Below are positions 791 to 1,120 of a stretch of DNA of 26,689 nt, piece after piece. The notes below the pieces were generated by a model. The model was given only the letters and a program-made list of their open reading frames with translations. It searched no databases and had not been told where the DNA came from. Numbering within the stretch: the first letter of the stretch is position 1; the number at the start of each line of letters is the position of its first letter. The DNA lies in NCBI GenBank assembly GCA_050298595.1, contig JBNKUM010000053.1:1-26689 (forward strand), written 5' to 3'. The position numbers were made by a program, and so were the translations under genes. Origin of the DNA: Gammaproteobacteria bacterium. Lineage in GTDB: Bacteria; Pseudomonadota; Gammaproteobacteria; GCA-001735895.

Positions 791-1038
791 CATCGCTGTC
801 ACGTGCCAGCTCGTCCCGGATGTACCACACCTCAGATCCGGTTCCTGTACGTCGCCCCGCGATTTTGTCCTGGACTTGACCACCATGGATGGTGGAAATG
901 CAGGTTTTGCAGGAGCAAAAACCTGACCTCCAGACCTCTCCTCGTGATGACGCCCTTGCCCTTCTTCTAACCTTCGGCTCTGCGAATACCGGGTGAGGGG
1001 ACTATCACCTCTCTAGTTTCGTGCCATGCCCGGCACAC
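788..1038 (-). mobile_element. Group IIC intron, 5' end and domain I (partial, interrupted)
   Basis: Minus strand starts GTGTGCCGGGCATGGCAC (GUGYG 5' consensus). It continues with GGTGATAGTCCC, GCAAGGGCGTC..TCTGGAGG, GAACCGGATCTGAGG and GGACGAGCTGGCA..CGATGTCC blocks in the order seen in class C intron domain I. It begins directly after a stem-loop (attC). No RT ORF or domain V is in the window. Confidence 0.82.
880..925. repeat. REP-like double-hairpin element inside intron domain I
   Basis: CCACCAT-GG-ATGGTGG (880-895) is followed by CAGGTTTT-GCAGGAGCA-AAAACCTG (901-925), two adjacent hairpins. Confidence 0.65.
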
Positions 1039-1120
1039 ACGCTTTGTGTAACCGGCTGCCAAATGCTGCATAGCGAAGCGGCACAGCGTTTGGTAGTCCG
1101 AGTTTACACGATCGTTATGC
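1039..1120 (-). other. Integron attC site of cassette 2, R' core split by the intron
   Basis: Minus strand: R'' GCATAAC overlaps the arsM stop. Arms TGTAAACTCGGACTACCAAACGC and GCATTTGGCAGCCGGTTACA pair with extra bases on the left arm. The site ends GCGT| where GCGTTRRRY is expected. Confidence 0.88.

Follow-up and report, generated by a model that had tools for sequence, protein, structure and literature searches.

Locus and insertion site

The window analysed here is the whole 26,689-nt stretch (positions 1-26,689) that forms the start of contig C53 of a gammaproteobacterial genome (G000). Near its left end lies a cassette of a chromosomal integron, in which a gene for an extracytoplasmic function (ECF)-type sigma factor (2120-2668, minus strand; Sigma70_r2 and r4_2 domains) comes first and an arsenite methyltransferase-like gene (arsM; 1115-2020, minus strand; NF008823, 342 bits against a cut-off of 263, with Pfam methyltransferase domains) comes last. 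Behind arsM stand the attC site of the cassette (1039-1120, recognised by sequence and DNA fold, its top strand being the minus strand of the window) and the 5' fragment of a group IIC intron, which spans about 288 nt of domain I (751-1038, minus strand; called by homology, inner boundary good to about 2 nt). Very probably this fragment is the decayed 5' end of an intron that was once reverse-spliced into the top strand of that attC site.

Read along the minus strand, the order is GCATAAC, GATC, GTGTAAAC, an intervening stretch, GTTACAC, AAAGC and GT, followed by GTGTGCCGGGCATGGCAC, which starts at 1038 and directly abuts the hairpin (1039-1120) downstream of arsM; the 5' exon ends AAAGCGT. 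The boxes of the site, taken from the sequence, are R'' (GCATAAC, 1120 to 1114), which includes the TAA stop of the arsM-like open reading frame (ORF; 1117 to 1115), L'' (GTGTAAAC, 1109 to 1102), L' (GTTACAC, 1052 to 1046), the spacer AAAGC (1045 to 1041) and what remains of R', its first two bases GT (1040 to 1039). The arsM frame ends 76 nt upstream of the intron start. Both strands of this stretch fold as a hairpin in DNA folding, the plus strand with -17.6 kcal/mol (z -2.94) and with bulged bases on the arsM-side arm, and the L''-like box exceeds the complement of the L'-like box by one base; the longer box and the bulges fit the plus strand as the recombining bottom strand. Inverse cores, an imperfect hairpin, extra bases on the R''-L'' arm and a position directly after a cassette ORF, as expected of an integron attC site, are all present. 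Where R' should read GCATAAC, the sequence now reads CACACAC.

A first-pass annotation of the window had proposed a group IIC intron that lies in the same orientation as the cassette ORFs and is inserted inside the R' GTT one base past the G/TT crossover (a slash marks the cut or insertion point), with the 5' exon AAAGCGT and loss of the R' core. This geometry was confirmed: the ORF strands agree with the intron strand, the intron starts at 1038, two of the orientation clues cited there (R'' over the arsM stop, extra bases on the arsM-side arm) were seen, and only GT is left of R'.

Homologues of the intron fragment

Window positions 463-1042 recur on contig C9 of the same genome with 88% identity, positions 751-1056 recur on contig C75 with 86% identity, and positions 1044 to 798 are 83% identical to the first ~250 nt of the annotated ltrA intron of plasmid pR148 (NC_019380, IncC). 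The Rfam model group-II-D1D4-3 scores 117 bits in pR148, 78.7 bits on C75 and 42.5 bits on C9; pR148 additionally matches D1D4-1 (54 bits) and the domain V/VI model Intron_gpII (38 bits), and C75 has a second score of 53.8 bits. C75 also retains a maturase-domain fragment, and the 3' end of the pR148 intron aligns to it. In the window itself, the GUGUG at 1038 to 1034 corresponds to the class IIC 5' end (GUGYG). Through these 83-88% identical relatives with Rfam matches, the segment 751-1038 is identified as a group IIC intron fragment, which upholds the earlier call.

In pR148 the order is qacL-blaOXA-10-aadA1-(ltrA intron)-qacEdelta1, all on the same strand. The intron junctions read ...CTCAAGCGT/GTGTGTCGGGCATGACAC (CAAGCGT/GTGTGTC) and ...CCCGAT/TAGATGCAC (TAGATGC), and the aadA1 attC core GTTAGAT is therefore split after GT. 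A matching intron stretch was found in nine plasmids (pR148 and eight identical copies), one of them from Shewanella algae. The complete copy on C75 (90219 to ~92205) has the junctions TTATCGT/...CCCGAT/TATACGG and lies on the strand opposite to a full intI gene (C75:87838-88698, minus strand). Both complete copies restore GT/T across the junction, and the AAAGCGT/ of the window equals their 5' side. Among the close copies (four in this genome and two in congeners), a co-oriented ORF stops 61-104 nt upstream of the intron in six of six.

Target specificity of the lineage

The extent of the lineage was surveyed with a 32-letter DNA pattern for the intron 5' end, scanned over species-representative genomes; 109 stretches matched, with 110 junctions among them. 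The exon ended in GCGT at 68 of these junctions, in ACGT at 28, in TCGT at 5, in CCGT at 3, in ACAT at 1 and in GCAT at 1, with 4 too short upstream to be read; NCGT precedes the intron in 104 of the 106 readable junctions. Surveyed copies come mostly from marine and saline Gammaproteobacteria such as Marinobacter. Orientation was assessed where the upstream sequence extended for 500 nt or more, which left 94 junctions (that of pR148 among them), and ORFs of 50 aa or longer were considered. At 72 of these junctions the stop of a co-oriented ORF lies 30-170 nt before the intron, and at 76 a YAAC[AC]A motif occurs within 140 nt upstream. In the window a hairpin (1041-1113) stands immediately 5' of the GCGT/intron junction, and the surveyed copies are placed likewise, which is the IIC style of insertion behind a DNA stem-loop with a short intron-binding site 1 (IBS1).

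The candidate exon-binding site 1 (EBS1) lies in a conserved domain I hairpin whose loop, placed by the alignment of relatives, is GCACGUGA (799-806, minus strand). Its ACGU (804 to 801) can pair with the IBS1 GCGU at 1042 to 1039. In an alignment of the 70 copies that retain 300 nt or more of the intron, this hairpin stands about 230 nt into the intron; nine rows carry unrelated sequence there and are therefore taken as truncated fragments. Of the 63 copies from which the hairpin was extracted, 61 have the loop GCACGUGA and one each has GCACAUGA and GCACGCAA, and the stem occurs in 30 versions with compensatory changes at four of nine pairs. An ACGU loop pairs with ACGU exons, or with GCGU through one wobble, and the variant loop GCACGCAA accompanies GCGT, to which it is a perfect match. 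By position, invariance and complementarity, the ACGU loop may be assigned as EBS1.

A classical intron served as control: the copy after arr-2 in a Klebsiella pneumoniae plasmid (CP128778), antisense to the cassettes with the junctions GAATTGT/.../TATGC, has GCACAAGA as the homologous loop. The loop is also GCACAAGA in an intron on contig C18 that follows CTCTTGT. The reading of the classical EBS1 as ACAA comes from these two controls (L139 and L009), the loop pattern having missed the TTGT references L137, L138 and L140. With GCACGUGA against GCACAAGA and NCGT against TTGT, the lineages thus differ at two positions in the loop and, in parallel, at two in the exon. The altered specificity suggested in the first-pass annotation, an EBS1 complementing GCGT, agrees with this: the loop reads ACGU, and its classical counterpart reads ACAA against TTGT. 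The C18 copy itself (L009; minus strand, ~1501-2190) is an ORF-less group IIC intron of ~700 nt that matches Rfam D1D4-3 with 137 bits, along with D1D4-1 and the domain V/VI model.

Reverse transcriptases (RTs) were compared in a quick maximum-likelihood tree of 31 sequences, from which three short rows were dropped and in which two non-class-C sequences served as outgroups. The 23 RTs of NCGT introns fall on one side of a branch with a Shimodaira-Hasegawa-like approximate likelihood-ratio (SH-aLRT) support of 99, apart from two classical attC RTs and two RTs of terminator-associated TTGT introns.

Decay of the intron copy

The fragment ends at the right part of an IS1111-type insertion sequence (IS; 1-752, plus strand; PF02371 and NF033542), and the full intron that the first-pass annotation hoped to recover is absent from this locus, where the copy is a ~288-nt remnant cut by that IS. 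The C-terminal 153 aa of the transposase are encoded at 1-462 and are followed by ~290 nt of non-coding DNA. Contig C108 of the same genome carries the N-terminal 232 aa, its positions 1-141 being the exact reverse complement of window positions 1-141; joined, the two contigs give an uninterrupted frame of 338 aa, and NF033542 scores 153 and 217 bits on the two halves. A full-length copy of the IS, 93% identical, occurs in a congeneric genome as a 1423-nt repeat contig (G004:C36). A 14-bp subterminal inverted repeat, GGAGTGGGTCCATA, lies at 736-749, and it is found inverted on C108, ~75-90 nt upstream of the start codon. The element has a DEDD transposase, subterminal inverted repeats and a long non-coding region after tnp, the IS1111 architecture described in PMC11187229.

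The IS stands at a repetitive extragenic palindromic (REP)-like unit of the GGTAGGGCGAAGCAGGAGGC type (751-790, strand not assigned), its target, which has 12 other copies in the genome. Compared with the Rfam model and with pR148, the C75 intron has this unit as an extra segment just after the EBS1 hairpin. On C53, C9 and C75 the repeat lies within domain I of the intron copy, and elsewhere REP-like GGTAGGGCGAAGCAGGA... units often stand in tandem with a related unit (for example C85:222843-222870 and C103:51810-51832).

A second insert in domain I, 49 nt long and containing a hairpin (878-926, minus strand), is visible as a gap in the pR148 alignment and in the Rfam alignments; the pR148 intron is without it, and the ~50-nt unit is repeated at many places in this genome and its relatives. 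Copies of this unit (...CTGCATTTCCACCATCC.TGG.GGTCAAG...) were noted at window 876-928, C75:91793-91845, C66:553-596 and C108:1042-1117 and on many contigs of related genomes, and C75 holds a second one directly 5' of its maturase-domain fragment. Its occurrence is that of a small dispersed repeat, or else of a motif belonging to the local intron family.

Past the IS on C108 the intron extends only about a dozen bases before further REP-like units follow. The IS and the loss beyond it leave the window with only ~288 nt of domain I. At C108:860-1340 (L007) lies the 5' part of a second group IIC intron in the opposite orientation (Rfam 31 bits). It stands behind a further attC-like hairpin and is preceded by GTGATTGT, the TTGT target of classical bottom-strand introns. 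Taken together, the fragments on C108 and C53 would therefore place two lineages of opposite strand preference head-to-head, with their 3' parts and the intervening DNA lost. Inversion or deletion between IS copies was considered as the cause of this arrangement, and no scheme was confirmed.

Contig C9 (4320-5134; L002) carries a second intron fragment with an IS right end, 88% identical to the window and located behind a different attC, so that the dead intron-IS composite stands behind two different attC sites, on C53 and on C9. On C9 the transposase gene is cut to its last 77 codons, and the exon end TTGGCAT has one mismatch to the EBS1 loop.

Surrounding cassette array

No inverse-core or attC core motif was read by eye in the 99-nt gap (2021-2119) between the sigma factor and arsM genes. 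Upstream of this cassette lies an attC candidate (2691-2835, minus strand) with perfect inverse cores (R'' GCATAAC at 2835 to 2829; GGC-GTTATGC at 2700 to 2691), which is unoccupied despite offering GCGT/T; its long centre folds no better than shuffles (z 0.92), and it is a candidate on its inverse cores only. Next to it lies a 136-aa ORF (2838-3248, minus strand; from the ORF list). An integron integrase remnant (3534-3782, plus strand; PF13495; TIGR02249, 56 bits against a cut-off of 265) covers the N-terminal ~65 of 315 model positions and is divergent from the cassettes. The layout is that of a usual integron, with cassettes running leftward on the minus strand and the intI stub on the plus strand. 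After the stub comes an HD-domain gene on the opposite strand. Elsewhere in the genome, C89 and C75 each carry a full-length intI gene, and C99 carries a third that has two in-frame stops.

Weighing of the reading

Several points weigh against a top-strand intron insertion or limit how far it can be taken. No Rfam match reached the gathering threshold in the whole window, and a relaxed search of positions 1-1400 (E up to 10) returned group-II-D1D4-3 at 951 to 718 on the minus strand with 23.1 bits (E 0.034) against a gathering score of 32. That search gave no domain V/VI (Intron_gpII) match, and no RT or maturase ORF was found in the window by ORF and domain scan; for these reasons the intron call depends on homology. 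Matches to FsrA, sR41 and sR43 in the same 1400 nt were dismissed as chance-level. No attC family came up in Rfam on the window, and polarity was called from the boxes, the fold and the gene directions. GT/T is not directly visible in the window copy because its 3' exon is gone. The orientation test is crude, 10 of the 94 junctions favouring an antisense ORF and 12 neither. The loop is nearly invariant, so that covariation with IBS1 inside the lineage is a single case, and mismatches to the loop occur at -4 in 8 of 106 junctions (TCGT, CCGT) and at -2 in two (GCAT on C9-type copies, and ACAT). The single clade of NCGT introns is partly built in, because the set was chosen by a DNA pattern from this lineage; the quick tree search shows only that NCGT RTs differ from the sampled classical RTs, not where the lineage branches, and relations among the three groups are unresolved in it. 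Finally, the adjacency of C108 and C53 is given by the 141-nt identical overlap and the unbroken reading frame, with no spanning read.

Three other readings of the same stretch were considered. The intron could start two bases earlier, at 1040 (GTGTGTGCC), which would make the exon AAAGC and place the insertion before the G of R'. The local sequence GCGTGTGTGCC permits either start, yet all 110 scanned relatives have GTGTG[CT]C after NCGT or a near variant of this, only the 1038-type boundary restores GTT with the 3' exon in pR148 and on C75, and ACGU complements GCGU, not AAGC; an earlier start is therefore very unlikely. More improbable still is that the polarity of the attC site was misread and that the plus strand is the top strand, which would turn the element into an ordinary bottom-strand IIC-attC intron. 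Either strand of the site does read RYYYAAC...GTTRRRY and fold; however, the direction of the array is set by the orientation of its cassette ORFs and of the intI remnant, the arm that carries the extra bases is the one beside arsM, the exon is GCGT and not TTGT, the loop is ACGU and not ACAA, and in pR148 and on C75, where annotated cassettes or intI leave the polarity unambiguous, it is identical to that of the window.

Least probable of all is that 463-1040 contains no intron and is the non-coding guide-RNA end of an attC-targeting IS110/IS1111-type element (IS1111-attC elements exist; PMC3001079 and PMC11187229): the transposase gene does stop at 462, C9 shares the transposase tail and the stretch up to attC at 88% identity, and the transposase is flanked on either side by similar, outward-facing termini, but the IS ends at ~750-752 with the inverted repeat at 736-749 and its partner on C108, the 1423-nt repeat contig of G004 reaches only the equivalent of window position 762 while other G004 contigs break at 681-778, the IS-free C75 copy continues past the insertion point as a complete intron with Rfam matches, and window positions 798-1044 match an annotated ltrA intron. 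An IS with long inverted ends was likewise dropped once the IS ends had been set at ~750 and the IS-free C75 copy had been read.

Interpretation

Top-strand insertion of a group IIC intron accounts for the junction as follows. As in other IIC introns, the target would be a DNA hairpin plus an exon match of very few bases; in this case the hairpin would be that of the attC top strand in single-stranded form. The GCGU at the exon end would pair with ACGU in the domain I hairpin loop, and this pairing would place the insertion inside the R' GTT (GT/T) with the intron pointing in the direction of the cassette genes. The two bases by which the loop GCACGUGA differs from the classical GCACAAGA may shift the target from TTGT/T on the bottom strand (R'' end, antisense) to NCGT/T on the top strand (R' end, sense). 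Decay would then have begun with the entry of a REP-like unit into domain I, followed by insertion of the IS1111-type element into that unit; the IS would have reached the integron only because its repeat target was inside the intron. The attC site has presumably lost its function with its R' box, which would fuse the cassette to what follows. The earlier suggestions that the insertion locks the sigma-arsM cassette in place and that the intron is transcribed with the array are possible consequences: the R' box is destroyed, but the array's own intI is a stub, with full intI genes elsewhere in the genome.

In this window the intron persists as a dead remnant, within a chromosomal integron that is itself decaying. 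It is a new member of a widespread lineage that is already present in resistance plasmids; judged by its sequence, it is a fragment without domain V and RT that can neither splice nor move.

We put at about even the chance of a wider proposal: that these introns form a large top-strand IIC lineage (at least 110 copies), treated in the searchable literature as isolated oddities, in which a change from ACAA to ACGU switched the attC strand, and whose members ride the Pc transcript and destroy the R' box at one base beyond the crossover. If this is true, two sister intron lineages invade cassette arrays, one on each strand; at this locus they stand head-to-head, and the top-strand lineage is a general cassette-fusing agent. 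Apart from that proposal, sense insertion into the attC top strand is normal for a widespread lineage and not a curiosity, and the two-base EBS1 difference would explain it, offering a testable case of a retroelement that changed its strand and site preference. The loss of the R' box bears on the fusion and fixation of cassettes in arrays, and the orientation bears on intron expression in the class 1 integrons of resistance plasmids, where co-transcription from Pc, rather than from an own promoter, may apply.

Comparison with known systems

The first-pass annotation had presented the arrangement as opposite to described IIC-attC introns. Its account of the intron, orientation, site and altered specificity stands; the novelty of the arrangement does not. 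That annotation had let its claim depend on top-strand insertion being uncommon in the clade, and because such insertion is this clade's rule (104 of 106 NCGT, 72 of 94 co-oriented, six of six close copies), the claim is not supported. The same geometry is also found in pR148, and same-orientation cases are on record: PMC7923331 cites "one reported case", an unusual group IIC intron of Enterobacter cloacae in the top strand and in cassette orientation, and PMC9229058 gives one same-orientation intron in S. algae. In the searchable literature, same-orientation introns appeared only in these two papers, and the breadth of the lineage was not found described there.

The pR148 intron probably corresponds in kind to the unusual intron reported from E. 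cloacae (Rodriguez-Martinez et al. 2012). It shares with the window copy the (A)AGCGT exon end, GT/T in the R' of an attC, the cassette orientation and the loop GCACGUGA; it is complete, with RT and domains V/VI, and resides in a clinical class 1 integron, whereas only 288 nt remain of the window copy, which lies in a chromosomal array and carries the 49-nt hairpin insert, the REP-like insert and the IS. In lying in cassette orientation in the attC top strand, the window copy belongs with the top-strand, attC-targeting IIC type.

The IS1111-family elements that hit REP-like repeats (ISPa11; PMC11187229) resemble the IS of the window in their DEDD transposase, subterminal repeats with few bases outside, long downstream non-coding region and short-repeat target; the window element is separate from the intron and not attC-targeting. 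Terminator-targeting IIC introns (Escherichia coli pF637-1 and a Pseudomonas paraeruginosa plasmid) also insert behind a stem-loop and have a similar 5' end (GTGCGCC.GGCATGGCGC), but they follow intrinsic terminators with TTGT, whereas the window copy follows an attC top strand with GCGT.

Classical IIC-attC introns (S.ma.I2 type) insert in the attC bottom strand at R'', at TTGT/T and against cassette transcription (PMC3001079, PMC7923331). The window type has in common with them the class C ribozyme, the same domain I hairpin architecture, recognition of an attC hairpin with ~4 exon bases, and GT/T inside a GTT core. The window copy matches the classical type in neither strand and site nor the ACAA EBS1: the classical introns take the bottom strand at the R'' end, with TTGT/T, the loop GCACAAGA and antisense orientation, and the window type takes the top strand at the R' end, with NCGT/T, the loop GCACGUGA and sense orientation.

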